Source: Alphaproteobacteria bacterium
Lineage (GTDB): Bacteria > Pseudomonadota > Alphaproteobacteria > SPJN01
Assembly: GCA_965227065.1 (NCBI GenBank)
Contig: CBDDFN010000010.1
Span: 9,098 to 73,097 of the forward strand
DNA: 64,000 nucleotides
Reading direction: 5' to 3'
Both the position numbers and the translations under genes were made by a program. Positions within the stretch are counted from its first letter, which is position 1, and each line of letters begins with the position of its first letter. The notes under the pieces are model-generated. The model was not told where the DNA came from. It saw only the letters and a list, made by a program, of their open reading frames with translations, and made no database searches. Below, piece by piece: positions 11,904 through 43,518 of this stretch.

Positions 11904-11906
11904 GGT

Positions 11907-12170: not shown

Positions 12171-12211
12171 TTTTTCCTTTCTTTGACCCGCTATATAAGA
12201 ATGGAGGCGGC

Positions 12212-12976: not shown

Positions 12977-13002
12977 GGCAACGACAATGGCATAAGCACG
13001 GC

Positions 13003-25451: not shown

Positions 25452-25453
25452 CA

Positions 25454-28344: not shown

Positions 28345-28379
28345 ATTTGCGCTTGGCACGCTCGACGTTGCAAGAATTA

Positions 28380-28952: not shown

Positions 28953-29010
28953 GGATATTTCATTTAGTGTTGAGATGAAAGCAGGATTCGGAGCGACCGT
29001 CCCGGTTGCG

Positions 29011-29565
29011 CTACCACCGCATCATGGGCATGGGATTGAGCGGATGCCTGGGGACCCAGCCGCCGGCAATCCGCACCAGCGCCTTGTGGAAACCCTGATT
29101 GGGATAAAGCGCCCGGATGGCTTTAAGATCGGCGCCCCTGGCGCCAAAGCGTACCAAACCGATACTGACATCGGAATAATCGGCCCGGCGGAACCACTCC
29201 CCCCAGTTGGGCGCATCACCGCGCGCGGGGACCGCCGTCAACTTGTGATGCTCCATCACCATATCGGCGACAGCCTCGGACCATTTGGTTAGCCCGCGCG
29301 CCACCAATTCCTGCTGGGCATGGGCGTTGGACGGCTCAAGATAATCAAAGGTGCCATCAAGCCAGATGCCCGCATCATGATAGACACAGGCAATGGCAAG
29401 CGCGGTCAGTTCCCCATCGCCGGGTTGGTAGTCAGGCGCCAGGCTGCGCTGGTGCACCAGGGTGGTTTCATAGACCCGGCGGCAATGATTGCCATAGCCG
29501 CCCAAGTCCCGGCCGATCGCCTCTTTGTGGCGGTCCAGCAATTCGGTAATCAGATCCTGGCTCAT
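29011..29565 (-). CDS. HD-domain-like protein (putative metal-dependent phosphohydrolase)
   Basis: 184 aa with H...HD...HH...D spacing (NHCRRVYE; CVYHDAGIW; MEHHKL; RRADYSD) reminiscent of the HD superfamily. Confidence 0.45.
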   Translation of the reverse strand: MSQDLITELLDRHKEAIGRDLGGYGNHCRRVYETTLVHQRSLAPDYQPGDGELTALAIACVYHDAGIWLDGTFDYLEPSNAHAQQELVARGLTKWSEAVADMVMEHHKLTAVPARGDAPNWGEWFRRADYSDVSIGLVRFGARGADLKAIRALYPNQGFHKALVRIAGGWVPRHPLNPMPMMRW

Positions 29566-29651
29566 CGTGCTCCCTCTCCCGCAGACCCTGCATGATCAGG
29601 ACCAGGCAGGAGTTGCGCAACCCCACCGGCGGAGTGGGCGGCGAAAAGCGG

Positions 29652-30533
29652 TCAGGATCGTTCCCGGTCATCCAGCAGCGCCAGCCCGAAGAACCGGCCC
29701 TTGATGATCCATGACAAGCCAAAGGCCCACATGGCAATGGCTTCGACAATGAAGGTGACATTGTTGGGGTCCCACCAATGAACATCATGGCCATTGATCT
29801 GTTCGACAGCCGTTTTGGTCCCCATTGCCAGCAGCACGCACACAATGGTGATGGCCGCCGCGCGATAGAAGAAATTGCGGCGGCGCTTGGCAGGCTTGAG
29901 ATTGCCTTGCGCATCATAATGTTCGCCGGGGATGATGCGGGTAAACACAAAGCCCGAATAATAGGCCAGAAACAGAAAGAAGATCACCGCCGTCACATTA
30001 TGGATCATGTCGGAGGGCTGGATCAGCACGAACAAATCGGCCGTGTCGGGCGGCAACACCCCGATGGCTTCGCCGGGCGTGCCGGTGGACTGGAACGACA
30101 AAAATGCCCGGCCATCAAACACTTGCTTTTCGCACCCGCTATGAGATGCGGGGAAAAGCGCGTTGGAGAGCGCGCACAGGCCCGCCAGTGTGGCCAGCCG
30201 GTTTTCCCATTTGTTTTCGCCGCTATAGGCGATGAGAAACGAGCCGATAAAAATCAAGCTGGCGGAAAAAACACCGCCCCAGAACCGGGCATAATAATAA
30301 TGAGATATGGAATCATAATAACAAGCGCCGAGAACTGATCCCAATAACAGAACAAGGGGCAAGGTCAGAGAAATGATTCCGACCATAGCCGCCATCAATC
30401 TCTGACGAATACGATAATATTCGTTTTCAGGTGCCCTCGCGCTCGAATCGGGTTGAAATCTCTGTTCCGGCGCGTCGATGAGTAATGACATCATGTCCCC
30501 CGACATGTCCCTCAACGCAAAATATATCCCCAC
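29652..30533 (-). CDS. Hypothetical polytopic membrane protein (AT-rich, foreign-looking codon usage)
   Basis: 293 aa with ~7 hydrophobic segments. The DNA is strikingly AT-rich relative to flanks (e.g. ataataataatgagatatggaatcataataacaagc). Confidence 0.5.
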   Translation of the reverse strand: MGIYFALRDMSGDMMSLLIDAPEQRFQPDSSARAPENEYYRIRQRLMAAMVGIISLTLPLVLLLGSVLGACYYDSISHYYYARFWGGVFSASLIFIGSFLIAYSGENKWENRLATLAGLCALSNALFPASHSGCEKQVFDGRAFLSFQSTGTPGEAIGVLPPDTADLFVLIQPSDMIHNVTAVIFFLFLAYYSGFVFTRIIPGEHYDAQGNLKPAKRRRNFFYRAAAITIVCVLLAMGTKTAVEQINGHDVHWWDPNNVTFIVEAIAMWAFGLSWIIKGRFFGLALLDDRERS

Positions 30534-30801
30534 GCACTTTTCATTTTAATAGTACATTTTCACTATTTTTTGACGGAATAGGGTCTTGGCTGCGCCCGCC
30601 CGCCCACGTCCGCAGGGCGTGTCTGCCCCTGTATCTGCAGGTCGGCGCCGGTTCAATGCTCCCCCCTTTTTATTTCGTGTACAGTGTATTATAAGTCGCT
30701 CGCTTCCATTCACGCGTCGCGGTGAGCGGAACACGGGCAGGGCTTTGGGGGGCCTGGGCTTGACCGGCATTTGCCGCGCGCACAGCCAATACGGGGCCAT
30801 T

Positions 30802-31653
30802 ATGTCCAACACATCCACACCTGATGCTCAGGCCAAGGCTGACGAGGTTTCAGCCAACGTCAATGAAGAGCAGAACTATGGTGCCAATCCCGTCGAAATG
30901 CGCGAGACCGATCACTATCAGGACGAATATGTCTACGGCTTCGTCGACAAATGGGACCAGCTCATCGACTGGGAGGCGCGCGCCAGGTCCGAAGGCCAGT
31001 TTTTTATCGATATTCTCAAGGCGCGCGAGAAAAAGACGGTTCTGGACGTTGCAACCGGGACAGGCTTTCATTCTGTTCAGTTGATGAAAGCAGGGTTTCA
31101 TGTCGTTTCCGCCGACGGGTCAGCGGAAATGCTGACCAAGGCGTTCGACAATGCGCGCGACCGCGATCTGGTGCTGAAAACAACACAGGCCGACTGGCGC
31201 TGGCTCAATCAGGACATTCACGGCAAGTTTGATGCCGTCATCTGCCTGGGCAATTCCTTCACCCATATTTTTGACGAGCATGACCGGCGCCGCGCCTTTG
31301 CCGAGTTCTATGCCGCGCTCAAACATGACGGCATCCTGATCCTCGATCAGCGCAATTATGACGCCATTCTGGATGTCGGCTTCCAGTCCAAGCACAAATA
31401 TTATTATTGCGGCGATCAGGTGTCGGCCGAACCTGAATATGTCGATGACAGCCTCGCCCGGTTTAAATATGAGTTTGCCGACGGCTCAAAATATCACCTC
31501 AATATGTTTCCTCTACGAAAGAATTATGTCCGCAAGCTGATGACCGAAGCGGGATTTCAGCGCGTGAAAACCTATGGCGATTTTCAGGAAAGCTATGAGG
31601 AAAACGAACCCGACTTTTTCGTCCATGTCGCGGAGAAATCTTACGATGAATAA
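30802..31653 (+). CDS. Glycine/sarcosine N-methyltransferase (GSMT)
   Basis: ATG 30802. GNMT-fold motifs VLDVATGTGFHSVQLMKAGF, DAVICLGNSFTHIFD, ILILDQRNYDAIL, FFVHVAEK parallel the GNMT/GSMT family. Confidence 0.85.
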   Translation: MSNTSTPDAQAKADEVSANVNEEQNYGANPVEMRETDHYQDEYVYGFVDKWDQLIDWEARARSEGQFFIDILKAREKKTVLDVATGTGFHSVQLMKAGFHVVSADGSAEMLTKAFDNARDRDLVLKTTQADWRWLNQDIHGKFDAVICLGNSFTHIFDEHDRRRAFAEFYAALKHDGILILDQRNYDAILDVGFQSKHKYYYCGDQVSAEPEYVDDSLARFKYEFADGSKYHLNMFPLRKNYVRKLMTEAGFQRVKTYGDFQESYEENEPDFFVHVAEKSYDE

Positions 31654-32485
31654 GCAAAGCCCCGAAGCCATTGAAATCGCTGAAAATTATTATGACAGCA
31701 CGGATGCAGACAATTTCTACCATGCGATCTGGGGCGGCGAAGATATTCACATCGGCCTGTATGAGCCCGGCGATACGATTGCGGAAGCCAGCCACAAGAC
31801 CGTGCTGGCCATGGCTGAAAGGTTGTATGGCCTGGATCACACCTCCAAGGTGCTCGACATCGGGTCGGGCTATGGCGGGGCGGCGCGCGTTCTGGCGCGG
31901 AAATATTCCGCCCTTGTGACCTGCTTGAACCTGTCCAAGGTTGAAAATGACCGCAACGCGCAAATGAATGCCGACCAGAACCTGGCCCACAAGATCACGG
32001 TGGAGCATGGCTCATTCGACGCCATCCCGGCCGATCCCGGCAGCTTTGACATTGTGTGGTCACAGGATGCGATCCTGCACGCGCCCGACCGGCTGAAAGT
32101 GCTGGATGAAGTGGCACGTGTTCTGAAGCCCGGCGGTCAGTTCATTTTTACCGACCCCATGCAGGCTGACGGTTTGACTGACACCGACGCGCTGACGCCT
32201 ATTCTGGAACGGATTCATCTGCCCAACCTTGGTTCAATCGAGTTTTACCGCAAAGCACTGGCCGAACGCGGCTTTGACGAAGTGCGGGTCGATGTGCTGA
32301 CCCATCAGTTGCGCGCCCATTATGCCCGCGTCGGTGAAGAGCTTGCAGCCCAGCGCAGCGCTCTGTCGGACAAAATTTCCGATGAATATGCCGAACGCAT
32401 GCTCAAAGGGCTGCAACATTGGGTGGACGGTGCCGACAAGGGATTGCTCGCCTGGGGCATCCTGCATTTCAAAAAGGCGGGATAA
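31646..32485 (+). CDS. Sarcosine/dimethylglycine N-methyltransferase (SDMT)
   Basis: ATG 31646 overlaps the GSMT stop (ATGAATAA). SDMT hallmark YYDSTDADNFYHAIWGGEDIHIGLY and SAM motif VLDIGSGYGGAARVLA. Confidence 0.85.
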   Translation: MNKQSPEAIEIAENYYDSTDADNFYHAIWGGEDIHIGLYEPGDTIAEASHKTVLAMAERLYGLDHTSKVLDIGSGYGGAARVLARKYSALVTCLNLSKVENDRNAQMNADQNLAHKITVEHGSFDAIPADPGSFDIVWSQDAILHAPDRLKVLDEVARVLKPGGQFIFTDPMQADGLTDTDALTPILERIHLPNLGSIEFYRKALAERGFDEVRVDVLTHQLRAHYARVGEELAAQRSALSDKISDEYAERMLKGLQHWVDGADKGLLAWGILHFKKAG

Positions 32486-32578
32486 TGCCCGCCCCGCCGG
32501 CCCGCCACGGGCGCGCCACCCAAGGTTGGCTCAAAGGGACTGAACCCCGCCGTTGCACTGACGGCAAAAAGCCTTGTT

Positions 32579-34033
32579 TTGGTCTTTGTCCTGTTTGGCG
32601 TGTTGATGCAGGACAGCGCCTCGGCGCTGTTCACCACCCTGAAAGACGGCATTATCGCCTCGGTGAGCTGGTTTTATATCGGCGCGGTAACCGGCTGCCT
32701 GATCCTTGTTATCTGGTTGATGGCCAGCCGGTTTGGCGCGATCAAGCTGGGGCGGACCGATGAAGAACCGGAATTTTCGTATGTCAGCTGGTTTGCCATG
32801 CTGTTTGCCGCCGGCATGGGCATCGGCCTGATCTTCTGGAGCGTGGCGGAGCCGGTCACCCACTTTATCGGCAATCCGTTCGTGGCCGATGGCGAGACAC
32901 CGCGCGCCGCGCAGGTTGCCATGCGCCTGACTTTTCTGCATTGGGGTCTGCACCCCTGGGCGATCTACGCTTTGGTCGGTTTGATCTTTGCCTATTTCGG
33001 TTTCCGCAAGGGCCTGCCGCTGACGCCGCGCTCGGCCCTGCATCCCATAATCGGTGATCGCATCTATGGCCCGATCGGCCATACGGTGGATATCTTGTCG
33101 GTCTTTGCCACAACATTCGGCGTTGCCACCTCGCTGGGGCTGGGGGCCAAACAGATCAATACCGGGCTTGAGCATCTGTTTGGCCTGTCAGTGTCGACAG
33201 GACATCAATTGCTGATCATCGGGGTGATTACGCTGATCGCGGTGACGTCGGTCGTGTCGGGCCTGGAACGGGGCATAAGGCTGTTGTCGGAAGCCAATCT
33301 TTGGCTGTCGGTCGTATTGCTGGGCTTTGTGCTCAGCTTCGGGCCCACCGCCTATATGATTGACACGCTGCTGCAATCGACGGGCGACTATCTGCAAAAC
33401 ATTGTGGCGTTGAGTTTCTGGACCGACGCCAATCAGAACCGCGGATGGCAGGCAAGCTGGACCACATTTTACTGGGGCTGGTGGCTAAGCTGGGCGCCCT
33501 TTGTGGGATTGTTCGTCGCGCGGATATCGCGCGGACGGACCATACGTGAATTTGCGTTCGGCGTGCTGCTGGTGCCAACCTTGCTGACCTTTGTATGGCT
33601 GTCGGTGCTGGGAGGCGCCGCCCTTCATGCCGAACTGCATGGCGCAGGCGGGATGGTGGCGGCGGTGCAAGACGATGTGACCTTGTCGCTTTACGCGCTG
33701 ATCGAACTGCTCTCACCAGGGGTGATCGGCACCATCATGGCCGGTGTCGCAACCATTTTGATCATCACCTATTTTGTAACCTCGTCAGACTCCGGCACGC
33801 TTGTGGTCAACACCATCTTGTCGGTCGGTGACACCAATCCACCGGTGACCCACCGGGTGATCTGGGGGGTCAGCGAAGGGGCGGTGGCCGCCGTTCTGCT
33901 GCTGGCAGGGGGATTGAAGGCGCTTCAGGCTGCGGCGATTTCGGCTGCTTTGCCTCTGGCCATTATTCTGGTGCTGATGACTTACGGGTTTATCAAGGCG
34001 CTTTATCAGGACATGCCCAGCAAGCATCACTGA
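32579..34033 (+). CDS. BCCT family transporter (betaine/carnitine/choline type)
   Basis: 484 aa. BCCT signature region FAMLFAAGMGIGLIFWSVAEPVTHF and a Trp-rich TM8-like segment (GWQASWTTFYWGWWLSWAPFVGLFVARISRGRTIREF). No ATG/GTG precedes TM1 in frame, so the start is TTG 32579 or CTG 32558. Confidence 0.85.
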   Translation: MVFVLFGVLMQDSASALFTTLKDGIIASVSWFYIGAVTGCLILVIWLMASRFGAIKLGRTDEEPEFSYVSWFAMLFAAGMGIGLIFWSVAEPVTHFIGNPFVADGETPRAAQVAMRLTFLHWGLHPWAIYALVGLIFAYFGFRKGLPLTPRSALHPIIGDRIYGPIGHTVDILSVFATTFGVATSLGLGAKQINTGLEHLFGLSVSTGHQLLIIGVITLIAVTSVVSGLERGIRLLSEANLWLSVVLLGFVLSFGPTAYMIDTLLQSTGDYLQNIVALSFWTDANQNRGWQASWTTFYWGWWLSWAPFVGLFVARISRGRTIREFAFGVLLVPTLLTFVWLSVLGGAALHAELHGAGGMVAAVQDDVTLSLYALIELLSPGVIGTIMAGVATILIITYFVTSSDSGTLVVNTILSVGDTNPPVTHRVIWGVSEGAVAAVLLLAGGLKALQAAAISAALPLAIILVLMTYGFIKALYQDMPSKHH

Positions 34034-34506
34034 TCCGATTTCGGGATTTCGCCGACATCGAGAATGGGCGAAGCGTCGAGCGCTTCGGCGTCCATCATTT
34101 GCGCCACCCGTTCCAGCGCGGCGCGGAGCATATGCTGTTCCCAGACCTCTAATTTGGTGAATTCGCGGGTAAAGTTGGACTGCATGAGTTCGGGTGCATC
34201 GGCAAGCCGGGACTGGCCCGCCTCACTTAGGGTCACCTCGACAACCCGCCGGTCGGTTTGCGAGCGTGTCCGTGTCACCAACCCGGCACGTTCAAGCCGC
34301 TCCACCACAGCGGTCACGGTGGCATGGGCAAGACTGACATCCTGGGCGACCGCGCCGATGGAGGGCGAGCCTTTCCGGCTGATCGATTGCAGGACGAGCA
34401 ATTGGGGAACCGTGAGGCCGGAGCGTTTCACCAGCTGTTTGGAATGCAGGTCAATCGCGCGGGTGATCCGGCGAATGGCCACCAGAATATCATCAAACTC
34501 GTCCAT
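34027..34506 (-). CDS. MarR family transcriptional regulator
   Basis: Winged HTH (LTVPQLLVLQSISRKGSPSIGAVAQDVSLAHATVTAVVERLERAGLVTRTRSQTDRRVVEVTL). Confidence 0.8.
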   Translation of the reverse strand: MDEFDDILVAIRRITRAIDLHSKQLVKRSGLTVPQLLVLQSISRKGSPSIGAVAQDVSLAHATVTAVVERLERAGLVTRTRSQTDRRVVEVTLSEAGQSRLADAPELMQSNFTREFTKLEVWEQHMLRAALERVAQMMDAEALDASPILDVGEIPKSDQ

Positions 34507-34571
34507 GCATCGGGCATCCAAGACAAAGAAGCCGGTCTTTTATCCCGTTCCCGGCGCGGGGAAAAGCGGCT

Positions 34572-35862
34572 TTACGCTTCATCCAGGAAACTCTTCAGCG
34601 TTTCATAAAGCAGCTTGGCGCCCTGTTCGATGTCATTCCAATGGGTCCATTCGTCAGGCGCATGGCTGATGCCGCCCACCGAGGGGACGAAAATCATGCC
34701 CGCCCGGGTAAACTCCGCCATAAACTGGGTGTCATGGCCCGCCCCTGAGGGCATGGTCTGGTGGCTCAATCCCAATTGCTGGGCAAAGTGGCTGAAGCGG
34801 TCAATCACATCGGGGTGGCATGGCGCGGGATCCAGCCAGCTCAACTCATCAAAATCAAAATGCAGATTGTGTTTGCGCGCGATGGCCGACAGGGGTCTTG
34901 CGGCAGGCCAAACCGATGGCCTTCATCACCTCAAGATCAATATCGCGGCCAACCAGAGAGAATTCCGCCTCGCCGGGAACCGTGTGGGGATTGCCCGGTT
35001 TCAGCTCAACCTTGCCGACGGTCAGCCGGCTTTTGTCGGTGCCTTCCTCGGCAATGATGCGCGGGATTTCATGGGCAAAATCAGCCAGCCCCATAAAGGC
35101 GTCCGAGCGCATATTCATCGGCGCGGTGCCCGCATGGTTGGCCTTGCCGCCAAGGCGCACCATCCATTTGAACACGCCCGAAATGCCTTCAACAACACCG
35201 ATCTGCTTGCCGGTCTGTTCGAGCACCGGGCCTTGTTCAATATGCAGCTCACAAAAGGCGTGGACAGAGCCCGGTGCGCGGCGCGCATCAAGCGCACGGT
35301 CGGGATCAAAGCCCTGCGCGGTCATGCAATCGGTCAGCTTTTCGCCCGATGCCGTGCGCGCCTGATGGATCCATTCAAGCGTCGTCGTGCCGGTCAGCGC
35401 CTGCACACCGAACATGCCGCCAAACCGGCCCTCTTCATCGGCAAAGGCCACCACTTCAAAGGGCCGTTCCGGCGGTGTGGGCAATGCGGACAAAACCCGC
35501 GCGCATTCAAGGCCCGCCAGAACCCCCAGCGTGCCATCAAACATGCCGCCTGCCGGAACACTATCAATATGTGATCCGGTCATCACACAGGGCTTGTCGC
35601 TGTCGAACCAGCGGCCAATGACATTGCCCGCCTCATCCATGCGTGCGGTGCCGCCCGCTTCGGTGATCTTGGCCATCAGCCAGTGACGCGCCTCCATATC
35701 CTGGGCCGTGAAGCCAAGGCGGAACACGCCGGGTTCCTCGCCGCGCTTGCCGATCTGGGCCAGTTCAAGAAGGTCAGACCGCAACCGGTCAAGCACGATA
35801 CCGTCCGCCGGGGCGGTGTCTGTGCCGGGTTGAACGGACATGGATGATGATTTGTAACTCAT
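34572..35862 (-). pseudogene. M20-family Zn-amidohydrolase (N-carbamoyl-L-amino-acid hydrolase / allantoate amidohydrolase type), split by a single frameshift
   Basis: Two adjacent minus-strand ORFs (35862..34855 and 34844..34572) together cover one AmaB/AllC-like protein (GSHIDSVPAGGMFDGTLGV ... HAGTAPMNMR ... GAGHDTQFMAEF...IFVPSVGGISHAPDEW). The frame changes near 34880-34895 (...AIGLA | AARPLSAIARKHNLHFDFDELSW...). Confidence 0.7.
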
Positions 35863-36079
35863 TGTGCCTCGTCTTTAGGCATTTACACGCAAAATAATTA
35901 TAATGCCTTCGTCAAATTTGACGACCGCGATTCGTTTCTTTATGATCATAAACGTGACCGGCCCCGAAGAAAATTTCTTGCGGGGCTTTCGTTTTTTGCC
36001 CACCTACGCGGGCCCAACGCAAAGCGAGAGAGCTCCGCCCCTTCGCGTGACCTTTAGCGTTAGAACAAATATCTTCGCT

Positions 36080-36463
36080 ATGCTGATCGGCCTTGTCGCT
36101 GTTATCGCCACCCCCGCGCTCGGCCTCGAGCTGCGCAATGCCGACGCGCGGGCCGGATTTGCAAGCCTGGGCTGGACCGATGCGCCCGATGGTGAAGCCG
36201 TGCTTGAATGGAATGACGGCACGGGCTGGCAGGAACTTTATCGCGGCACCGACAAAGCAAGCACCGTCACCGGCCTTGACGAAGGCGCGTATCAATTCCG
36301 GCTTGTCGCCCCCGATGGTACAGTGTCCGAGCCGTTGACCTTTACGGTTGAGCATCACGCGCTGAGCCTTGCCCTGCAATTTTTCGGGGCCGGGGCGCTC
36401 TTGTTCGTCTTGCTGATTGCCCTGCTTGTCCGGCCCACCCCCGACACGGGATCGCCGTCATGA
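36080..36463 (+). CDS. Small exported/membrane-anchored protein (signal peptide, beta-rich domain, C-terminal TM), coupled to the SSS transporter
   Basis: MLIGLVAVIATPALG signal, then ...WTDAPDGEAVLEWNDGTGWQELYRGTDKASTVTGLDEGAYQFRLVAPDGTVSEPLTFTV (FN3-like pattern), then a TM. Stop overlaps the SSS start (ATGA). Confidence 0.5.
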   Translation: MLIGLVAVIATPALGLELRNADARAGFASLGWTDAPDGEAVLEWNDGTGWQELYRGTDKASTVTGLDEGAYQFRLVAPDGTVSEPLTFTVEHHALSLALQFFGAGALLFVLLIALLVRPTPDTGSPS

Positions 36464-37887
36464 TCGAGCACGCCGTGCTGGCCCCGCAAACAGCCGCCAT
36501 CATCATTGCCCTGTTCGGTGTTTTCTGGATCGGGCTTGGCTGGTGGATCGGCCGGTCCAACAAAACGCTGGATGATTTCATGCTGGCGGGCCGCAATGTC
36601 GGGCTGGGGCTTGCCGCAGCCACCGCCATGGCCACCTGGGTGACGTCCAACACCACGATGGTGGCCCCGCAATTGACCTATCAGCTTGGCATTTGGGGGA
36701 TGGTCGGCTATTCGCTCGGCGCAGTCGGGCTGCTGCTGTTTGCCCCGCTCGCCCGGCGGATTCGCGAGATCATGCCGCACGGCTTTACCAGCGGTGATTT
36801 CATCCGCCGCCGCTACGGTACGCTGGCCTGGGCCGTCTTTCTGATTATATCCTTCTTCTATGCGCTGGGCTGGCTGATCACGCTGGGCATGGCCGGTGGC
36901 GTGCTGGTCGAGGCCCTGTCTGGTATTCCCTATCTCTACGGCATGTCGGTGATTGTGCTGGTCTGTACGCTTTACACCGTCTTTGGCGGATTGCGCGCGG
37001 TGATCGGCACCGACTTTGTGCAGACCGTGATCATTTTGGTGGGCGTTGCTCTCATTGCTTATCTTGTGCTCGACAAGGTCAGCTTTGAAACCATCCACCA
37101 ATCCCTTGAAGCGGAACGTCCGGGGCTGCTCAATCTGTTGCTGCCCGCCTCGATCATGTTCTTGTTCAACAATCTGTTTTTCGGTGTGGGCGAGATTTTC
37201 CACTCCAATGTGTGGTGGAGCCGCGCGTTCGCCTTCGGCCGCCATGTTGGCTTTAAAGCCTATTTGCTGGGCGGACTGCTGTGGCTTCCCGTCCCGATTG
37301 TGGCCGGTTTTGTGGCGCTGGCAGCGCCGGCACTGGGCGTCAATGTGCCGTCCGCCGATATGGTCGCGCCGTTGGTGGCGGGACAAGTGCTGGGCGAAGT
37401 TGGGGCCATCCTGGTCTTTATCGTTGTTTTCGCAGCGCTCGCCTCAAGCCTTGATTCGGTGCTCGCGGCAACCGCGGACCTGATCAGCAATGACATTGTC
37501 AAAGGCCTGTTCTGGAAAACCGCCAGCGATGATCAACTGCGCAAGGTCGCGCGCAACACGATCCTGATATTGGGCCTCGCTGTGTGGCTTGTCTGCTTGA
37601 TCCGGGTGTCGACCCTGGGCGAGTTGTTGCAGTTCACCGGCGCGTTTGTGGCCAGCACCATCTGGCCCATTGCCATCGGGCTTAAAACCAATCGCCTGGG
37701 TAATCTGGGTGCCGCGCTCGCCATGGCTGTGGGGACCGCCACCGGCCTGTGGGCGTTTTTTGCCATCGGCTTTTACACCGCCGCTTTGGTCGCAACCGGC
37801 GTATCACTCATCATCAGCGTGATCTTTGTGCTGAGCGACGGCACACGGTTTGATTTCGAAAAATTGCGCGAGGAGGCCTCCTCATGA
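36460..37887 (+). CDS. Sodium:solute symporter (SSS) family transporter
   Basis: 475 aa, ~13 TM. SSS family features (FMLAGRNVGLGLAAATAMATWVTS; GGLRAVIGTDFVQ). Confidence 0.85.
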   Translation: MIEHAVLAPQTAAIIIALFGVFWIGLGWWIGRSNKTLDDFMLAGRNVGLGLAAATAMATWVTSNTTMVAPQLTYQLGIWGMVGYSLGAVGLLLFAPLARRIREIMPHGFTSGDFIRRRYGTLAWAVFLIISFFYALGWLITLGMAGGVLVEALSGIPYLYGMSVIVLVCTLYTVFGGLRAVIGTDFVQTVIILVGVALIAYLVLDKVSFETIHQSLEAERPGLLNLLLPASIMFLFNNLFFGVGEIFHSNVWWSRAFAFGRHVGFKAYLLGGLLWLPVPIVAGFVALAAPALGVNVPSADMVAPLVAGQVLGEVGAILVFIVVFAALASSLDSVLAATADLISNDIVKGLFWKTASDDQLRKVARNTILILGLAVWLVCLIRVSTLGELLQFTGAFVASTIWPIAIGLKTNRLGNLGAALAMAVGTATGLWAFFAIGFYTAALVATGVSLIISVIFVLSDGTRFDFEKLREEASS

Positions 37888-38003
37888 TTTCAGCTGCCTT
37901 TCTGGAAATGCTGGTCTGGCCCGCGCTGATCCTTGTTTCCCTTTCCCCGGTCGTCCTGATCGGTTTGTTGCTTAAAGACGTGAAGGACAAAACCCTATGG
38001 TGA
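37884..38003 (+). CDS. Micro-ORF: 39-aa single-TM peptide, ATGA-coupled to the SSS transporter stop
   Basis: MISAAFLEMLVWPALILVSLSPVVLIGLLLKDVKDKTLW; AGGAGG lies 7 nt upstream. A second 36-aa ORF (37997..38107, MVTEDLKDQVEFDRSRPDIYGDVHPKELIPEYSGRL) overlaps its end. Confidence 0.3.
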   Translation: MISAAFLEMLVWPALILVSLSPVVLIGLLLKDVKDKTLW

Positions 38004-38138
38004 CAGAAGACTTAAAGGACCAGGTCGAATTTGACCGGTCCCGCCCCGACATTTACGGCGATGTTCACCCCAAGGAACTGATCCCAGAATATTCAGGAAG
38101 ATTATGAGCCTTTAACGGGGCTCGATAGCCAGCACATC

Positions 38139-39069
38139 GTGTCGGCCAAGCAGTTCAACCGGGATATGCTGCTGCAACTGTTCCGGCTGGCCGCCAAGTT
38201 TGAGGCCAATCCGCGGCGCTATTCCAATCCGCTGAAGGGCAAGGTTCTGATCTCGGCCTTTTATGAACCCAGCACGCGGACGCGCCTGTCCTTTGAAAGC
38301 GCGTGGCACCGCATGGGCGGTGACATCATGTCGATCACAGACCGCGCCACCACCGGCATCGCCAAGGGTGAGTCGCTCAGTGACATTGGCGAGATGTTCA
38401 ACAATTACGGCGACTGTGTCGTGCTGCGCGACGTCAATGCGGGATCGGTGTTCGAGATGGCGCAAAGCCTGCGTGTGCCGATCATCAATGCGGGCAATGG
38501 CGTGGATGAGCATCCCACCCAGGCACTGGCTGACCTTTATACGATCCTGAAATGGCGGCCCGCCCTGCTTGACCCCAAATGCGAAAAAATCCGCATCGGC
38601 ATTGTCGGTCTGCCCAACCGGATGCGCACGGTGCGCAGCCTGCTGATCATGCTGTCGCATTTTTCCTACGCGTTCGAAGAAGTCGTCGTCATTCATGACG
38701 GCAAGCGCCAGGAACTGTTCGGCGCGGGCCAGCGTGAGGAGCTTGAGAAGGCGGGGCTGACTATCCGCGAAACCACCGTGTTGCGCGATGAACTGCCGGG
38801 CCCTCGACGTGGTCTATATCAATGCCATTGTGTGGGAGAAGGACGATTTTCAGGTCATGAATGACGCCTTCCGGCTGGACCGGACCTCCCCGCTCAAACA
38901 AGGCGCGATTGTCATGCACCCGCTGGCGCGCGGTGACGAGCTCGACACCAGCCTCGATGACACGCCGCACAATTGGTATTTTGCGCAAGCGCGCGGCGCG
39001 GTCTTTGTCCGCCAGGCTCTGCTGACCTGCCTGGTCCAGCGGATCGACCGTGTCATGGATGTGATCTAA
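38139..39069 (+). pseudogene. Aspartate-carbamoyltransferase-like (ATCase/PyrB-fold) transcarbamoylase, split by a single frameshift
   Basis: GTG 38139. Carbamoyl-phosphate motif STRTRLSFE, and HPTQ (ATCase-type, not OTCase HPxQ). The C-terminal half continues in another frame from ~38795 (ALDVVYINAIVWEKDD ... VMHPLARGDEL ... NWYFAQARGAVFVRQALL). Confidence 0.7.
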
Positions 39070-39088
39070 CAAAAGGAAGTCTCTGAGT

Positions 39089-41113
39089 ATGTGCGGCATT
39101 GCCGGTATTTTTCACCGCGACCCTCAACAGCCCCTCGACCGCCAATTGCTCGCCAATATGGCGGCGATCCAGTATCATCGCGGCCCCGACGAATTCGGCG
39201 TGCGCTGCATGGATGATCGCGGCATTGGCTTTTCCCATGCCCGCCTGTCGATCATTGATCTGGACGAAACCCGGGCGCGTCAGCCTTTTGAAAGCAAGGA
39301 TGGCCGGCTGCTGCTTGCCCATAATGGCGAATTCTATGACTTCAAGCGCATCCGCGCTGATCTGACCAGCCGGGGCGACCGCTTCCAGTCAAAGTCGGAT
39401 TCTGAAATCATTCTGGGGCTTTATCCCCGGCTGGGGCTTGAAAAAACCCTGATCAATCTGCGCGGCGAGTTTGCCGTGGCGCTGTATGACAAGGACGAGG
39501 ACGCGCTGTTTCTGGTGCGCGACCGCTTCGGCGTCAAGCCGCTTTACTGGACGATGACCGAAGACGGGCTGGTGTTCGGTTCTGAAATCAAGGTGCTGTT
39601 TGCGCATCCCAAAGTGGAGCGGCGTCTTCATGAAGAAGGCGTGCTGCACCAGCTCATTCAGGTGATGGTGCCCGGCACCACCGCCTTTGAAGGGGTGCAT
39701 CAGATCAAGCCGGGCCATGTGCTGCGCGTCAAACGCTCGGGCACCAGCTTCCAGATCGATGATCTGCAATATTGGGATTATGAGTTCCCCCATGCTGATG
39801 CCCATCACGATCCGCGCAGTGAAGCGGACAATATCGAGCTTGTCCGCGAAAAGCTGCTGGAGGCGGTGACGCTGCGCCTTGAGGCAGACGTGCCGGTCGG
39901 CTGTTATCTGTCGGGCGGGATCGATAGCTGTTCAATCCTGGGACTGTCTGCCGCCGTCCGGCAAGACCCGGTGAAGGCGTTCACCATCGGCTTTGATGAC
40001 GCCGATTATGACGAAACCCCGGTCGCAACCGAGATGGCTGAGGCCACCGGCGCGGATCAGGAGGTGCTGCGGCTTAACGCCAATCATCTCTACGGGCATT
40101 TTGAAAAGACGCTGTGGCATACAGAGCGGACCATCTACAACACGCTCGCGGTCGCCAAATATCTCATGAGCCAGCGGGTCAATGAGCTTGGCTACAAGGT
40201 TGTGCTGACCGGTGAGGGCTCTGATGAGCTGTTTGCAGGCTATCCCGCCTTCCGGCGCGATCTGTTCCTGCACGGCCTGCCTGATTTGGACGCTGATGAG
40301 CGCAAGACCTGGGAATCCATGCTGGGCGAGTCAAATGCCTTGTTCAAAGGCGCCATGCTGGCCGAGGATGAGCTTGATGACCCCCATCTGTCGGCCAAGA
40401 TTGGTTTCACGCCCAGCTGTTTGCAGCCCTGGCTGGCCTGCACGCACACGGCACGCGGGCTCATGCAGGCCGATTTGCGGGAGCGGTTGACCCGTTACCA
40501 TCCCGGCGAGGCGATTGCAGATACGTTCGACACGACAGCCCTGTCGGGGCGGCATCCGCTCGACCGGGCTCAATATGTCTGGTCGAAAACCATGCTTGAG
40601 GGTCAGATCCTGACCTGGGGCGGGGACCGGGTTGATATGGCCAATTCGATGGAGGCGCGGCCCGCCTTCCTTGATCATCATCTGGCTGCAGCCGCTGTCA
40701 CCATCCCGCCCATTCACCGCATCAAGGAGCGTAAGGAAAAATATGTCCTGCGCGAAGCGATGAAAGGGCTTTTGCCCAAAGTGCTCTATGAGCGTGAGAA
40801 ATTCGCCTTCATGGCCCCGCCCGCGCACACCGATCAGCAAAAATGGGCATCCATGATGGTGCTCGCTGATGAGCATCTGTCAGACGAGGCGGTCACAGCG
40901 GCGGGCGTGCTTGATCACAAGGCGGTTCACGACATGCTCGAAGAAGCGGTGGCCGATGAAACCAGCCGGGCACGTAAAGTCCAGCTTGATGCGGTGATCA
41001 ACCATGCGCTTGGCGTGCAGATCCTGCACAAGCATTTTATCGCCCAGGATGTTCCCGCCCTGGCCGCCCAGCGCGCCAAGGAACTGGGCTGGAGCGCCGA
41101 GCGCGCCGCTTAG
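39089..41113 (+). CDS. Asparagine synthetase B-family glutamine-hydrolysing amidotransferase (long, 674-aa form)
   Basis: N-terminal nucleophile MCGIAGIF. PP-loop SGGIDSC. An extended ~120-aa C-terminal region beyond canonical AsnB. Confidence 0.85.
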   Translation: MCGIAGIFHRDPQQPLDRQLLANMAAIQYHRGPDEFGVRCMDDRGIGFSHARLSIIDLDETRARQPFESKDGRLLLAHNGEFYDFKRIRADLTSRGDRFQSKSDSEIILGLYPRLGLEKTLINLRGEFAVALYDKDEDALFLVRDRFGVKPLYWTMTEDGLVFGSEIKVLFAHPKVERRLHEEGVLHQLIQVMVPGTTAFEGVHQIKPGHVLRVKRSGTSFQIDDLQYWDYEFPHADAHHDPRSEADNIELVREKLLEAVTLRLEADVPVGCYLSGGIDSCSILGLSAAVRQDPVKAFTIGFDDADYDETPVATEMAEATGADQEVLRLNANHLYGHFEKTLWHTERTIYNTLAVAKYLMSQRVNELGYKVVLTGEGSDELFAGYPAFRRDLFLHGLPDLDADERKTWESMLGESNALFKGAMLAEDELDDPHLSAKIGFTPSCLQPWLACTHTARGLMQADLRERLTRYHPGEAIADTFDTTALSGRHPLDRAQYVWSKTMLEGQILTWGGDRVDMANSMEARPAFLDHHLAAAAVTIPPIHRIKERKEKYVLREAMKGLLPKVLYEREKFAFMAPPAHTDQQKWASMMVLADEHLSDEAVTAAGVLDHKAVHDMLEEAVADETSRARKVQLDAVINHALGVQILHKHFIAQDVPALAAQRAKELGWSAERAA

Positions 41114-41170
41114 CAACGTATTTGGGGTGGCGTGCCGCCCGAAGCGCGCAAGTGGCTCTTGGGTGACGGG

Positions 41171-41387
41171 TGCCAACGGACAGACTGAAGGCGAAAACAA
41201 TTTTCGAAGAAAATTGGTGGAGCCCCCGCACGAAGGTCGAACCCGGTCGAACCTTGTGCCAACGGACAAACCGAAGGTGAAAACAATTTTCGAAGAAAAT
41301 TGGTGGAGCCCCCCGCGCAAAGTTCGAACTCTGTCGAACTTTGTGCCAACGGACAAACCGAAGGCGAAAACAATTTTCGAAGAAAAT
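41171..41387 (-). repeat. Mirror-image tandem array (2 intact + 1 partial unit) of the same ~87-bp element as 28086-28344, abutting the second tRNA-Ala
   Basis: The + strand reads TGGTGGAGCCCCCCGCGCAAAGTTCGAACTCTGTCGAACTTTGTGCCAACGGACAAACCGAAGGCGAAAACAATTTTCGAAGAAAAT, which is the reverse complement of unit 1 at 28086 with only a few mismatches. Confidence 0.85.
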
Positions 41388-41463
<76 letters not shown>

Positions 41464-41618: not shown

Positions 41619-41972
41619 TTAACGGTCGTCGTCGTCATCCTTGACGACTTCAACCTCGACGGTGACATCATCATCGTCATCATCGTCAGTCAGGCCGACG
41701 GTGACATCGTCCTCGTCATCATCGTCGATCAGCGCATCATCGCCCTCATCGTCTTCGACCTCATCCTCGTCTTCATCCTTTTCGGGTGCCGGTTTGGGCT
41801 CCTCTTCAGGACGTTGACGCCGCGGCTTCAGCACACGCTCAGGCTCGAACGCGGTCTCGCATTTCGGGCAAATGAGCGGAAACTCCGCCTGCATATCGTA
41901 GAAACGCGCACCACAAGAGGGGCATGTGCGCTTTTTGCCCCATTCATCTTTGGCCACCGCCGCTTGCTCCAT
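41619..41972 (-). CDS. TIGR02300 (FYDLN_acid) family zinc-ribbon protein with poly-Asp/Glu tail
   Basis: [11 protein letters not shown]...CPKCETAF, followed by an extreme acidic tail ([34 protein letters not shown]). Start taken at MEQAAV. Confidence 0.7.
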
Positions 41973-42177
41973 CCATGACCGATTGGTGACAGAGGGTCTG
42001 ACTGCCACGCGGCGGGCTGAGTGTCAAAGGGGTTTTGGCCCAAAGACTTACCGCGCCATTTGCCGCATCCTTTGCGCCACACCATCCCTCATGCCCCTGC
42101 ACGACCGGCCATCGCCTTTCGCGGCCAATCATGATAGAGCCCAACGCAGATTCCGTCCTTCTTCGAACGGGTGTTTC

Positions 42178-43518
42178 ATGACGCTCAGCGCAACACTTTC
42201 CTCTCGCCTGTCTTCTGGCCTATCAGGCACCGCCACCATTCCAGGTGACAAATCAATCTCGCACCGCGCCTTGATGTTCGGCGCTCTCGCAGTCGGCGAA
42301 ACCACCATCACCGGCCTGCTTGAAGGCGAAGACGTGCTGTCCACCGCCGAGGCGCTGCGCAAGATGGGGGCTGAGATCCATCAGGACGGGCCGGGCCAGT
42401 GGCGCACCTATGGCGTCGGCATTGGCGGGCTGATGGAGCCTGAGACCGAACTCAATATGGGCAATTCAGGCACCAGCACACGGCTGTTGCTCGGCCTCAT
42501 CGCCACAGCGCCGATCACCGCCACCTTGATTGGCGATGCCAGCCTATCAAAACGCCCTATGGGCCGGGTGATCACGCCGCTTGAAGCCATGGGGGCCCGC
42601 TTCGTCACCCGCGAAGGGGGCCGCCTGCCGCTGACCGTGACCGGGGCCACCCTGCCGCGCCCCTTGAGCTACACGCTGCCGGTGGCCTCAGCGCAGGTGA
42701 AATCAGCCATCCTGCTGGCCGGGCTCAACACGCCGGGCCTGACGACGGTGATCGAGCCCGTCGCCACCCGCGATCACACCGAACGCATGCTGCAAGCCTT
42801 CGGCATTGCGCTCACCGTTGAAGACAGCGATCAGGGCAAGGTGATCACGCTGATGGGCGAGCAAGAGATGACGCCTGCCCCCATTGTGGTGCCGCGCGAC
42901 CCTTCATCGGCCGCCTTCCCGGTGATTGCCGCGCTGATCACCGAGGGCTCCCAAATCTCCATCCCCGGCGTCTTGCTCAATCCCGGCCGCATCGGACTTT
43001 ACGAGACGCTGAAAGACATGGGCGCCAAGATCACCATTAGCAATGAACGCACCGAAGGCGGTGAGCCGGTTGGCGATCTTATGGTTGAACATTCCCCGCT
43101 CAAGGCCGTCACCGTCCCGGCTGAGCGGGCCGCCAGCATGATTGATGAATATCCCGTTTTGTTTGCCGCCGCGGCCCTGGCTGAGGGCCGTACCCTGGCC
43201 CGGGGCCTTGAAGAGCTGCGGGTAAAGGAAAGCAATCGTCTCGCCGTCATGGCCGACGGGCTCAAAGCTTGCGGGGTCAGGGTGGAAGAATTTGAAGACG
43301 GCATCGCCATTCACGGCACGGGCGGCACGCCGGTGCCCGGCGGCGCGACGGTCAAGACCCATCTGGATCACCGCATTGCCATGGCCTTCCTCACCCTGGG
43401 GCTCGCCGCACAGAACCCGGTCACGGTGGATGATGCCAGCCCGATTGAAACCAGCTTTCCCGGCTTTGCCGAGCTTATGCGCGGGCTTGGGGCGCGGGTT
43501 GAACAGGCCCCTGCATGA
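42178..43518 (+). CDS. aroA: 3-phosphoshikimate 1-carboxyvinyltransferase (EPSP synthase)
   Basis: ATG 42178 in frame. [49 protein letters not shown]. Confidence 0.95.

Follow-up and report, generated by a model that had tools for sequence, protein, structure and literature searches.

Genes and control region of the locus

The window (the whole stretch of 64,000 nt analysed here, from an Alphaproteobacteria bacterium, contig CBDDFN010000010.1 of GCA_965227065.1) has been searched with Pfam and NCBIfam profiles, which place on the + strand a small protein, an SSF symporter, a 39-aa ORF, a PyrB-like transcarbamoylase and an AsnB-like amidotransferase, in this order. An M20 carbamoylase-family gene and a MarR gene lie on the − strand, divergent from the symporter-to-AsnB operon. 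Families, order and coordinates of this co-directional module agree with the original prediction, as does the betaine-synthesis cassette close by, whose GSMT, SDMT-like and BCCT genes are found directly upstream.

28010-28085: tRNA-Ala(CGC), on the other side of the osmolyte gene block
30586..34033, +: glycine-betaine cassette (context), immediately upstream of the module
30586-31653, +: GSMT (glycine/sarcosine N-methyltransferase); NF051855 484 bits, cut-off 350
31574-32485, +: SDMT-like (sarcosine/dimethylglycine N-methyltransferase-like); NF041675 338 bits, below the cut-off of 550, yet the best match
32579-34033, +: BCCT transporter; TIGR00842 524 bits, cut-off 408
34027..34521, −: MarR-family regulator, transcribed in the M20 gene's direction and downstream of it; PF01047 3.5e-14
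34572..35862, −: M20 hydantoinase/carbamoylase-family amidohydrolase (N-carbamoyl-L-amino-acid type); TIGR01879, NF006771
35863..36079, no strand: divergent control region with promoter-like hexamers on both strands, palindrome and leader hairpin
36080..36463, +: small exported protein, 127 aa; signal-like segment, beta-rich domain, C-terminal transmembrane helix
36460..37887, +: sodium:solute symporter, SSS family, 475 aa, intact; PF00474 5.2e-22
37884..38003, +: single-pass membrane micro-protein, 39 aa (MISAAFLEMLVWPALILVSLSPVVLIGLLLKDVKDKTLW); homologous ORF in 76/78 loci
37997..39069, +: PyrB-like transcarbamoylase of a distinct clade; PF02729 3.5e-40, PF00185 6.7e-9 (ATCase/OTCase family)
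39089..41113, +: AsnB-like glutamine amidotransferase, 674 aa, intact; PF00733 3.6e-86, GATase_6/7 (PF13522, PF13537)
41388..41463, −: tRNA-Ala(GGC), 3' boundary of the osmolyte gene block

The symporter, whose best named NCBIfam matches (PutP and PanF) fall far under their cut-offs, is 86.5% identical to its orthologue in the close relative L001 and has been found in 71 loci of 10 taxon groups. The small protein (62% identical to that of L001) has homologues in 51 loci of 8 taxon groups, every one of them symporter-bearing, and is probably an accessory subunit of the symporter; its signal-like and transmembrane segments are apparent ones, read by eye from the translation. The gene stands as predicted, and the Fn3 label given to it reflects one sub-threshold Pfam match (E 0.0067). 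Two micro-ORFs had been proposed downstream, and the first is a real conserved gene, with homologues that end in ...LW or ...VW between symporter and transcarbamoylase; it starts on the symporter stop (ATGA), and its own stop runs into the transcarbamoylase start. The second (37997-38107) is no separate gene, being the displaced 5' end of the transcarbamoylase, which encodes an N-terminal extension of ~40 aa conserved in the clade. Neither the 39-aa nor the ~130-aa partner matched a described family in Pfam or NCBIfam. The control region contains a palindrome rich in A and T at 35889-35906 and, at 35961-35998, a leader hairpin with a T-run behind it; no Rfam family matched the region, and its promoter hexamers and hairpin are conserved only in L001 and a second relative, L090. 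Kordiimonas loci have MarR homologues in the position that MarR takes in the window, and MarR heads the operon in Ectothiorhodospira and Thioalkalivibrio.

Indel mapping against L001 has revealed two +1 frameshifts in the transcarbamoylase where a single one had been noted, one near 38083 (CCC where L001 has CC) and one near 38798-38803 in a GGGCCC run, the tblastn frames going 2 -> 3 -> 1. A further correction concerns the M20 gene, which carries one +1 frameshift near 34892 (GGGG versus GGG in L001): in a tblastn alignment of the intact protein of L001 with the window the frame changes at aa 323, and the ORF pieces 34855-35862 and 34572-34844 both match TIGR01879 and NF006771. Compared with L001, each of the three shifts is a +1 insertion in a short run of G/C. 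Deletion of two bases yields a transcarbamoylase ORF of 356 aa (84% identical to L001), and deletion of one base an M20 ORF of 429 aa; the M20 gene is independently frameshifted in L090. Since about 40 other window genes are intact, with full-length domain matches, the window copy of the module is probably decaying and non-functional. The three frameshifts in transcarbamoylase and carbamoylase thus suggest that the pathway has most likely been lost recently by this uncultured alphaproteobacterium, which would in that case depend on the neighbouring glycine-betaine genes. They could also be assembly errors, because they are homopolymer insertions in a contig that is probably metagenome-assembled.

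Enzyme clades related to PyrB, AsnB and carbamoylases

The transcarbamoylase shares with PyrB, the ATCase catalytic chain, the fold family, the carbamoyl-phosphate site, K84 and R167, and its nearest solved structures are ATCases (2rgw, 1.6e-47). Residues S52, T53, R54, T55, R105, H134, Q137, K84, R167 and L267 are invariant in 121/121 clade members, so that the carbamoyl-phosphate site (STRTR, R105, HPTQ, L267) is unchanged throughout and the alpha-carboxylate binder Arg167 is retained. The clade differs from PyrB, besides its N-terminal extension, in the replacement of Arg229 by S/A (121/121), of Gln231 by A (118/121) and of P268 by A (all 121); Arg229 and Gln231 are the binders of the aspartate side-chain carboxylate. 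An intact orthologue remains below the PyrB equivalog thresholds, with 204 bits against TIGR00670 (cut-off 237) and 197 bits against NF002032 (cut-off 263). Neither pyrC nor pyrI has been found as a neighbour of the clade in about 90 loci of ~22 kb each, and in the window pyrF (47817-48518) lies 7 kb off within a trp/acc context. By scores, residues and the neighbours in these loci, canonical PyrB is rejected as an assignment; the earlier placement of the gene outside a pyrimidine context agrees with this.

The AsnB-like protein, described earlier as a 674-aa enzyme with catalytic Cys and PP-loop, is indeed intact: it begins with MCGIAG, which supplies the Cys nucleophile, and contains SGGIDSC. 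Across its clade the MCG start is kept in 119/120 members and SGG[IV]DS in 120/120. It exceeds the cut-off of the generic model TIGR01536 (425 bits) and stays under those of TIGR03104, TIGR03108 and NF006949. An EPS-type AsnB is rejected, the TIGR03108 score being 381 bits against a cut-off of 817 and EPS genes never having been seen beside the module in the examined loci. It counts against a role in osmolyte synthesis that the clade is no nearer to the AsnO of the NAGGN system than to other AsnB paralogues.

Source annotations call the pair aspartate carbamoyltransferase and asparagine synthase, and the generic AsnB model is passed; one could thus regard the two as ordinary housekeeping paralogues, a second PyrB and AsnB that are neighbours by chance. 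We consider this extremely improbable, as Arg229 and Gln231 are replaced almost throughout, scores fall under the PyrB and AsnB equivalog cut-offs, pyrimidine genes are absent nearby, and the two genes keep an invariant pairing from phylum to phylum, alongside a dedicated transporter. Mutation of these two residues cripples E. coli ATCase.

The M20 protein passes TIGR01879 and the subfamily model NF006771 like L-carbamoylase/hydantoinase-carbamoylase amidases, which hydrolyse N-carbamoyl-L-amino acids and related ureido acids. It scores under the ErtE and AllC equivalog cut-offs and, in contrast to ErtE and allantoate amidohydrolase, stands outside hydantoin, ergothioneine and purine-catabolic contexts.

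Conserved linkage and osmolyte context

In 78/78 informative genome loci (80 in total, two being cut by contig ends) the AsnB-like gene has the transcarbamoylase immediately upstream; these loci span Alphaproteobacteria, Gammaproteobacteria, Cyanobacteria and one myxobacterial MAG. Retrieval from the transcarbamoylase side gave the pairing in 5/6 contexts. A point against the pathway proposed below is Thiorhodospira sibirica, which has the micro-protein and the transcarbamoylase without an adjacent AsnB-like gene. Only transcarbamoylase, AsnB-like protein, M20 protein, symporter and small protein recur in at least 5 of 15 taxon groups, MarR recurring in four and an isochorismatase-family hydrolase in three. 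The expected co-occurrence of both enzyme clades with an SSS transporter is therefore conserved across phyla, and a chance origin of the gene order is excluded because the order itself is conserved across them. Most named carrier genera are, we presume, marine, saline or soda-lake taxa.

One may ask whether the module is catabolic, its symporter importing a ureido compound that the M20 enzyme and a reversed transcarbamoylase (phosphorolysis) degrade. Importer and M20 carbamoylase are frequent components, transcarbamoylases of catabolic type (catabolic OTC, putrescine transcarbamoylase) are known in the superfamily, and the isochorismatase-family hydrolase of some lineages is closest to biuret amidohydrolase and RutB. 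Such a role is nevertheless improbable: it leaves the tightest-linked partner, an ATP-consuming AsnB-type enzyme (78/78), without a function, no carbamate kinase recurs in the neighbourhoods, and Idiomarinaceae keep symporter, transcarbamoylase and AsnB-like gene with neither M20 nor another recurrent hydrolase family within 10 kb, one of their loci (L038) having also been scanned with Pfam.

The original prediction had read transcarbamoylase, AsnB-like enzyme and carbamoylase as a pathway to an N-carbamoyl amino-acid amide, for instance the 1-amide of N-alpha-carbamoyl-L-glutamine (CGA), and linkage, residues and the genome of a CGA producer now support it, the chemistry itself being what we infer. 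Ectothiorhodospira marismortui is the organism that accumulates CGA (PMC1224877), and FOUO01000006.1, listed as E. marismortui DSM 4180T (PMC8877833), carries a MarR, M20, isochorismatase, transcarbamoylase and AsnB-like module inside a sucrose-osmolyte locus, its transcarbamoylase showing the clade substitutions (YINAIAW, HPLAR). Ectothiorhodospira, Ectothiorhodosinus and Thioalkalivibrio have sucrose synthase beside the module, and in the last two the module is directly followed by an MscS channel gene; GSMT/SDMT betaine genes adjoin the module in the window and in one Synechococcus MAG. Ectothiorhodosinus, reported to be without betaine and ectoine synthesis genes (PMC7824335), carries the full module; the same paper discusses CGA and names no genes for it. 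As had been claimed, no annotated pathway joins these families: the literature searched holds no earlier description of the module, and no curated model covers it. The module is, as far as its genes tell, the best candidate for the CGA pathway. It counts against this assignment that reports of CGA concern a single organism whereas the module is widespread, no CGA report having been found in the literature searched for the Idiomarina, Kangiella, Kordiimonas and Synechococcus carriers.

The same enzymology might instead serve another N-carbamoyl amino-acid amide, an undescribed ureido-amide solute derived for example from alanine, asparagine, glutamate or some amino acid not used in proteins, Ectothiorhodospira making its CGA with other genes. 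The loss of Arg229 and Gln231 says that the acceptor side chain is bound otherwise than that of aspartate, not that the acceptor is glutamine; CGA is unreported from most carrier taxa, and the best named equivalog of the M20 protein is, below its cut-off, the N-carbamyl-L-glutamate amidohydrolase ErtE. We nonetheless rate this as unlikely, since among known natural solutes CGA alone requires exactly carbamoylation and amidation, and the module residing in its producer's genome. Somewhat less likely still is a product that is no osmolyte, be it a nitrogen-rich compound for storage or transport, a signal, or a cyclised metabolite of hydantoin type, the last if the AsnB-like enzyme treats the N-carbamoyl amino acid as a beta-lactam synthetase would. 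The putative product has four nitrogens to six carbons, the module core includes a dedicated importer, and in marine Synechococcus the module neighbours ureC, a urease gene, and contains hydrolases of the M20 and DUF1028 families; but sucrose, betaine and MscS genes are recurrent neighbours of the module, its layout resembles that of the NAGGN system, and the near-universal glutaminase Cys nucleophile points to intermolecular amidation. The cyclising relatives known to us, beta-lactam and carbapenam synthetases, have lost that nucleophile.

Proposed route and comparison with known systems

We favour, as reasonably probable, that the module makes a doubly capped, neutral amino-acid osmolyte, takes it up or recaptures it by Na+ coupling, and turns it over. 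The PyrB-like enzyme would use carbamoyl phosphate to carbamoylate L-glutamine, the proposed acceptor, at its alpha-amino group, and in a proposed second step the AsnB-like enzyme would adenylate the free alpha-carboxylate and amidate it, its own glutaminase domain supplying the ammonia. AsnO offers a precedent, performing the same amidation on N-acetylglutaminylglutamine in NAGGN synthesis. The symporter with its two small membrane partners would import or recapture the uncharged solute, the M20 carbamoylase would strip the carbamoyl cap once the solute is unneeded, an isochorismatase-family or DUF1028 hydrolase may remove the amide cap in some lineages, and MarR may repress the system until osmotic or ligand signals relieve repression. 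An import-centred function is likewise conceivable, because the symporter is a core component in most lineages. Two points count against the route. The Ectothiorhodospira hydrolases look co-transcribed with the synthetic enzymes, which would lead to futile cycling if the hydrolases had no post-translational control, a puzzle that PA3461 poses for the NAGGN operon too; and Idiomarinaceae have no M20 gene within 10 kb.

OpuE is an osmolyte-specific SSS transporter (for proline), and other SSS systems have small accessory membrane proteins. The module resembles these systems in placing a Na+/solute symporter beside osmolyte genes together with tiny membrane proteins, whereas the window symporter itself is distant from PutP/OpuE (77 bits against a 515-bit cut-off).

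The closest parallel is NAGGN synthesis in P. aeruginosa, where the MarR gene PA3458 is divergent from asnO (PA3459), ngg (PA3460) and a metallopeptidase gene (PA3461), which make NAGGN (PMC8070244). Common to both, if the proposed route holds, are a glutamine-derived solute with both charges masked, an AsnB-like enzyme that makes the C-terminal amide, a separate enzyme that caps the N-terminus, a metallohydrolase alongside, and an often divergent MarR repressor (PMC8070244). The N-cap, in contrast, would be added in the module by a transcarbamoylase with carbamoyl phosphate and not by a GNAT/ATP-grasp enzyme with acetyl-CoA, so that no dipeptide would be formed; the hydrolase is of family M20 instead of M42; the AsnB-like protein is not an AsnO orthologue, since it reaches 295 bits against TIGR03104 (cut-off 570); and the module adds a dedicated SSS transporter with two small subunits.

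Gene content and state of the window copy

The genes of the window have been mapped with Pfam and NCBIfam scans and by comparison with an intact close relative, the ENA metagenome contig L001, whose AsnB-like protein is 92% identical to that of the window. The window comes from an uncultured alphaproteobacterium, its S1 protein reaching no more than 79% identity to those of named Parvibaculaceae and Pyruvatibacter-type relatives. The features in and around the candidate module are as follows.

Features of the window in and around the module
28010-28085, plus strand: tRNA-Ala(CGC)
30586-34033, directly upstream: glycine-betaine cassette (GSMT, SDMT-like, BCCT transporter)
34027-34521, minus strand: MarR regulator, downstream of the M20 gene
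34572-35862, minus strand: M20 hydantoinase/carbamoylase-family amidase (TIGR01879), divergent from the operon
36080-36463, plus strand: small exported protein, 127 aa; by eye, the start is signal-like and a segment at the C-terminus hydrophobic
36460-37887, plus strand: sodium:solute symporter (PF00474)
37884-38003, plus strand: membrane micro-protein, 39 aa
37997-39069, plus strand: PyrB-like transcarbamoylase (PF02729, PF00185)
39089-41113, plus strand: AsnB-like amidotransferase, 674 aa (PF00733)
41388-41463, minus strand: tRNA-Ala(GGC)
47817-48518: pyrF, beside trpFBA

Start and stop codons overlap (ATGA, ATGGTGA) from the small protein gene through the symporter and micro-protein genes to the start of the transcarbamoylase. 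The betaine-synthesis cassette, which the original prediction placed on the same island as the module, is found directly upstream of it, and both lie between the two tRNA-Ala genes together with three minus-strand ORFs (28380-30545) without a Pfam or NCBIfam match. The GC content is 0.536 at 30-32 kb against ~0.60 elsewhere in the window (GC3 ~0.70), aroA, cmk and rpsA come after the osmolyte block, and the block between the tRNA-Ala genes (28010-41463) may be an acquired osmoadaptation island. Two sulfotransferase-type genes upstream of the first tRNA-Ala gene (Sulfotransfer_3, 24354-25523, and arylsulfotransferase, 26479-27840, both on the minus strand) have no relation to the module. In the aroA ORF (41926-43518; 530 aa from a GTG start) the similarity to AroA sets in at residue 94, and the listed start is probably over-extended rather than indicating a fusion.

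In the 5' leader of the operon, downstream of a promoter-like site (35918-35946) and ahead of the small protein gene, a strong hairpin (GCCCCGAAGAAAATTTCTTGCGGGGC, 35961-35998, ~-17 kcal/mol) followed by a T-run looks like a terminator or attenuator. It is kept in L001 and in L090, a JGI metagenome relative with 83% nucleotide identity to the window, and is absent from more distant loci; being confined to the two closest relatives, it is therefore no general trait of the module. A known RNA element in the leader has been rejected, as Rfam gives only chance-level matches there and at gathering thresholds returns nothing but the two tRNAs in the whole window.

The transcarbamoylase had been described as carrying a single frameshift. 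The frameshifting has been confirmed, and the number has been corrected to two by tblastn with L001 proteins and by DNA comparison (frame 2 to 3 near 38083, frame 3 to 1 near 38800); the M20 gene switches frame once, near 34892. Compared with the L001 DNA, all three shifts are +1 insertions within short runs of G/C, and removal of two bases yields a 356-aa transcarbamoylase ORF, 84% identical to that of L001, as removal of one base yields a 429-aa M20 ORF. Because the frame changes have been mapped and the two-base deletion restores the ORF, the stretch 37997-38107, formerly taken for a second micro-ORF, is the transcarbamoylase's own 5' end and no separate gene. About 40 other window genes (including secA, lysC, ptsP, ispG, argJ, prfA, prmC, pyrF, trpFBA, accD, folC and rpsA) show full-length domain matches by Pfam coverage, and the three frameshifts, confined to two neighbouring genes, are consequently no general assembly problem. 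Since the two disrupted genes retain 81-84% identity to intact orthologues, the loss of their frames either happened recently or stems from a local assembly artefact, and the window copy of the module is probably a recently inactivated remnant. Intact versions exist in E. marismortui DSM 4180, Kordiimonas, Idiomarina and Synechococcus WH 8017, for example. In L090 the transcarbamoylase is intact and the M20 gene (5489-6777) is split into ORFs of 181 and 248 aa, with a break at about aa 221-230 that differs from the site in the window, which suggests that the carbamoylase has been lost repeatedly in this lineage. No M20 gene has been found within 10 kb of the module in Idiomarinaceae.

Conservation of the module across genomes

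Relatives of the AsnB-like protein at 64-76% identity run into the thousands, and a scan of one genome per species has returned at least 227 loci in ~186,000 species genomes. Linkage has been counted in the best 80 of these 227 loci, in 78 of which the transcarbamoylase clade stands directly upstream of the AsnB-like gene, the other two ending at a contig edge. These 80 loci come from Alphaproteobacteria (Kordiimonas, Emcibacter, Pseudokordiimonas, Rhodomicrobium and other Hyphomicrobiales), Cyanobacteria (marine Synechococcus, Cyanobium) and Gammaproteobacteria (Pseudidiomarina, Idiomarina, Kangiella, Aliikangiella, Pleionea, Ketobacter), and also include a myxobacterial MAG. By ORF clustering, the families that recur in at least 5 of 15 taxon groups are the transcarbamoylase (15), the AsnB-like enzyme (14), the M20 amidase and the symporter (10 each) and the small protein (8); below this mark come MarR (four groups) and an isochorismatase-family hydrolase (three). 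The co-occurrence of transcarbamoylase, AsnB-like enzyme and symporter, proposed from the window as a check, is borne out. Approached from the transcarbamoylase side, the module also turns up in Thioalkalivibrio, Ectothiorhodospira magna, E. marismortui, Nitrosococcus oceani and Ectothiorhodosinus mongolicus. The exception is Thiorhodospira sibirica (7885-9080 of its locus L091), which keeps a 40-aa micro-protein gene and the transcarbamoylase, with patatin and lipid A acyltransferase genes on their flanks and neither a symporter nor an AsnB-like gene in the vicinity, and which represents either a remnant or a split arrangement. In Synechococcus sp. WH 8017 (L035, 3471-16502) the order is symporter, transcarbamoylase, AsnB-like enzyme, M20 and DUF1028, with a urease alpha-subunit gene on one side and three genes together on the other (circularly permuted ATP-grasp, Alpha-E, transglutaminase); the same trio adjoins the module in two gammaproteobacterial groups.

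The symporter matches PF00474 with 78.7 bits (cut-off 22.8) over residues 40-425 and falls below the cut-offs of every named-substrate model. Between it and the transcarbamoylase, a micro-protein of ~40 aa with one transmembrane helix is encoded in 76 of the 78 loci (L001-L089), both alphaproteobacterial and cyanobacterial ones among them, as counted with a looser filter that gave 76 true matches where a first, stricter one gave 30; the first of the two micro-ORFs originally proposed is real. It has no match among described families, its conserved C-terminus (...[KR]D..K..LW, or ...EWR.GRVW in cyanobacteria) ends in LW or VW, and it appears to be translationally coupled to both neighbouring genes. 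The small exported protein, ~130-190 aa in relatives, occurs only in symporter-carrying loci (51 loci, 8 taxon groups), Ectothiorhodospira being without both, and is probably an accessory subunit of the symporter.

The M20 protein belongs to the carbamoylase/allantoate-amidohydrolase family: the first fragment of the frameshifted window gene, intact in L001, reaches 257 bits against the TIGR01879 cut-off of 204, and among named equivalogs N-carbamyl-L-glutamate amidohydrolase comes nearest, with a score below its cut-off. Its isochorismatase-family partner most resembles biuret amidohydrolase, RutB and nicotinamidase, enzymes that hydrolyse amide or ureido groups, and in marine Synechococcus a DUF1028 protein takes this place directly after the M20 gene.

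Predicted activities of the two synthases

From established ATCase structural work we take R229 and Q231 (E. coli PyrB numbering) to hold the aspartate beta-carboxylate and R167 to hold the alpha-carboxylate. In an alignment of 121 clade members with E. coli PyrB, the residues of the carbamoyl-phosphate site (S52, T53, R54, T55, R105, H134, Q137, L267) as well as K84 and R167 are invariant, and the carbamoyl-phosphate motifs are found in the window sequence too. R229, however, is replaced in all 121 (by S in 70, by A in 51), Q231 by A in 118 and P268 by A in all; in the window YINAIVWEK stands in place of YMTRVQKER of E. coli PyrB. With the former residues kept and R229 and Q231 replaced, the clade is, judged from its sequences, expected to have kept the binding of carbamoyl phosphate and of an alpha-amino acid and to have lost that of aspartate as such. 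Membership in the ATCase/OTCase superfamily is given by PF02729 (3.5e-40) and PF00185 (6.7e-9), matched by the two fragments of the window gene, and by both OTCace_N and OTCace domains on record for intact relatives. The closest solved structures are ATCases (~1e-47); an N-terminal extension of ~40 aa runs throughout the clade. Although the carbamoyl-phosphate motifs are common to both, the clade differs from PyrB (EC 2.1.3.2) in the loss of R229 and Q231, in the scores of the intact L001 orthologue below the PyrB equivalog cut-offs (TIGR00670, 204.3 bits against 236.95; NF002032, 196.6 against 263) and in its surroundings. The position outside a pyrimidine context, recognized at the outset, extends to the ~90 loci, among whose recurrent neighbours no pyrC, pyrI or pyrR has been found, and pyrF of the window lies 7 kb from the transcarbamoylase.

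The AsnB-like protein of the window starts with MCGIAG and carries the SGGIDSC PP-loop (PF00733, 3.6e-86), in line with the intact Cys1 nucleophile and PP-loop first read from the sequence, and both are kept in 119-120 of 120 relatives. The generic AsnB-family model TIGR01536 is the only one that it passes (425 bits, cut-off 267), the scores for NF006949 (262, cut-off 499), TIGR03104 (295, cut-off 570) and TIGR03108 (381, cut-off 817) all lying below the equivalog cut-offs, and its closest solved structure is a hydroxyamidotransferase (7e-42). An exopolysaccharide-linked AsnB has been rejected on the TIGR03108 score and on the recurrent neighbours of the module, among which no exopolysaccharide genes occur. 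A housekeeping pair of pyrB and asnB is effectively excluded.

Candidate product and comparison with known osmolyte pathways

The compatible solute CGA, the 1-amide of N-alpha-carbamoyl-L-glutamine, was described in 1991, its producer being a Dead Sea phototroph. This organism is Ectothiorhodospira marismortui (PMC1224877), and FOUO00000000 is given as the genome of its strain DSM 4180T by Imhoff and colleagues (Table 1 in PMC8877833). The NCBI contig FOUO01000006.1 (L007) carries the module, which is hence present in the genome of a known CGA producer; proteins of this assembly are labelled Ectothiorhodospira mobilis at NCBI, in disagreement with PMC8877833, and the species label bears on how these genes are tied to the CGA chemistry in the literature. 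In L007 a sucrose synthase gene comes first (minus strand), then MarR, M20, isochorismatase, transcarbamoylase and AsnB-like enzyme (plus strand), then a PfkB kinase (minus strand). The transcarbamoylase of the CGA producer (10001-11068 of L007) shows the same substitutions as the rest of the clade (YINAIAW, HPLAR), and the AsnB-like protein (11116-13128) is 66% identical to that of the window.

With glutamine as acceptor, the transcarbamoylase would convert carbamoyl phosphate and L-glutamine to N-alpha-carbamoyl-L-glutamine, and the AsnB-like enzyme would amidate the alpha-carboxylate in an ATP/glutamine-dependent step to give CGA. The symporter with its two small partners would serve Na+-coupled uptake or recapture of the solute, MarR would act in repression, and after osmotic down-shift a cysteine or Ntn hydrolase would remove the amide and M20 the carbamoyl group, giving glutamine back. 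We favour, with some reserve, the reading of the module as a carbamoyl-amino-acid-amide osmolyte system with CGA as product, and the N-carbamoyl amino-acid amide pathway originally predicted is supported by comparative genomics. One main alternative is an acceptor amino acid other than glutamine.

A product with a non-osmotic role is a further main alternative, on which the neighbouring genes bear. Sucrose synthase adjoins the module in Ectothiorhodospira, Ectothiorhodosinus and Thioalkalivibrio, an MscS channel gene lies directly downstream in the latter two, and glycine-betaine methyltransferase genes adjoin it in a Synechococcus MAG as in the window. The named carrier genera are, as far as known, mostly marine, saline or soda-lake taxa. 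Ectothiorhodosinus mongolicus, with the full module followed by the MscS gene, is reported to be without betaine and ectoine synthesis genes (PMC7824335). A third main alternative, an import-centred catabolic role, is left some room by the symporter being a core component, and the osmolyte reading is weakened by hydrolases that seem to be co-transcribed with the synthases, by the broken linkage in Thiorhodospira and by the lack of CGA reports for most carrier taxa in the literature searched. A purely catabolic module has been rejected, as an ATP-consuming AsnB-type amidotransferase would have no place in it and carbamate kinase is not among the recurrent neighbours.

A survey of phototroph genomes for osmoadaptation, from 2020, brings up CGA only as a possibility and gives no genes for it (PMC7824335). 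In agreement with the original prediction that CGA genetics are undescribed and that no annotated pathway combines these families, nothing on either CGA genetics or the transcarbamoylase-AsnB-like pairing has been found in the literature searched (including Thioalkalivibrio, Synechococcus and compatible-solute papers), and NCBIfam release 20 holds no specific model for either enzyme; the two-enzyme candidate makes the question testable. More tentatively, and with slightly more doubt than confidence, CGA or a close ureido-amide relative may be a widespread, overlooked, nitrogen-rich osmolyte that many bacteria of the sea and of soda lakes synthesize, take back up and recycle, among them the picocyanobacteria Synechococcus and Cyanobium, Idiomarinaceae, Kangiella, Kordiimonadales, Nitrosococcus and Thioalkalivibrio, via a new transcarbamoylase substrate class and a three-component Na+ symporter. 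If so, alpha-N-carbamoylation of a neutral amino acid would form a new ATCase/OTCase specificity class, and the module would serve as a genetic marker by which a nitrogen-rich solute can be traced in at least 227 of ~186,000 species genomes, including marine Synechococcus, which bears on the dissolved organic nitrogen pool of the sea and on predicting salt tolerance from genomes.

The closest architectural counterpart is the pathway to N-acetylglutaminylglutamine amide (NAGGN) of Pseudomonas aeruginosa, in which the MarR repressor PA3458 is divergent from genes for three proteins (AsnB-like amidotransferase, N-acylating enzyme, metallopeptidase), and in which loss of the operon leads to poorer growth at high osmolarity (PMC8070244). 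The module mirrors this combination of MarR, AsnB-like enzyme, N-capping enzyme and metallohydrolase. It differs in that a transcarbamoylase, not Ngg, stands beside the amidotransferase, no Ngg-type (GNAT-fused) ATP-grasp gene occurring among the called or recurrent neighbours, where the circularly permuted ATP-grasp family that recurs in three taxon groups is of another type; nor is the amidotransferase an AsnO of the NAGGN kind (TIGR03104, 295 bits against 570). If the osmolyte reading is true, the module would provide a second AsnB-dependent charge-masking osmolyte pathway alongside NAGGN, one that would be new as far as found, built from known enzyme families and with a known architectural precedent.
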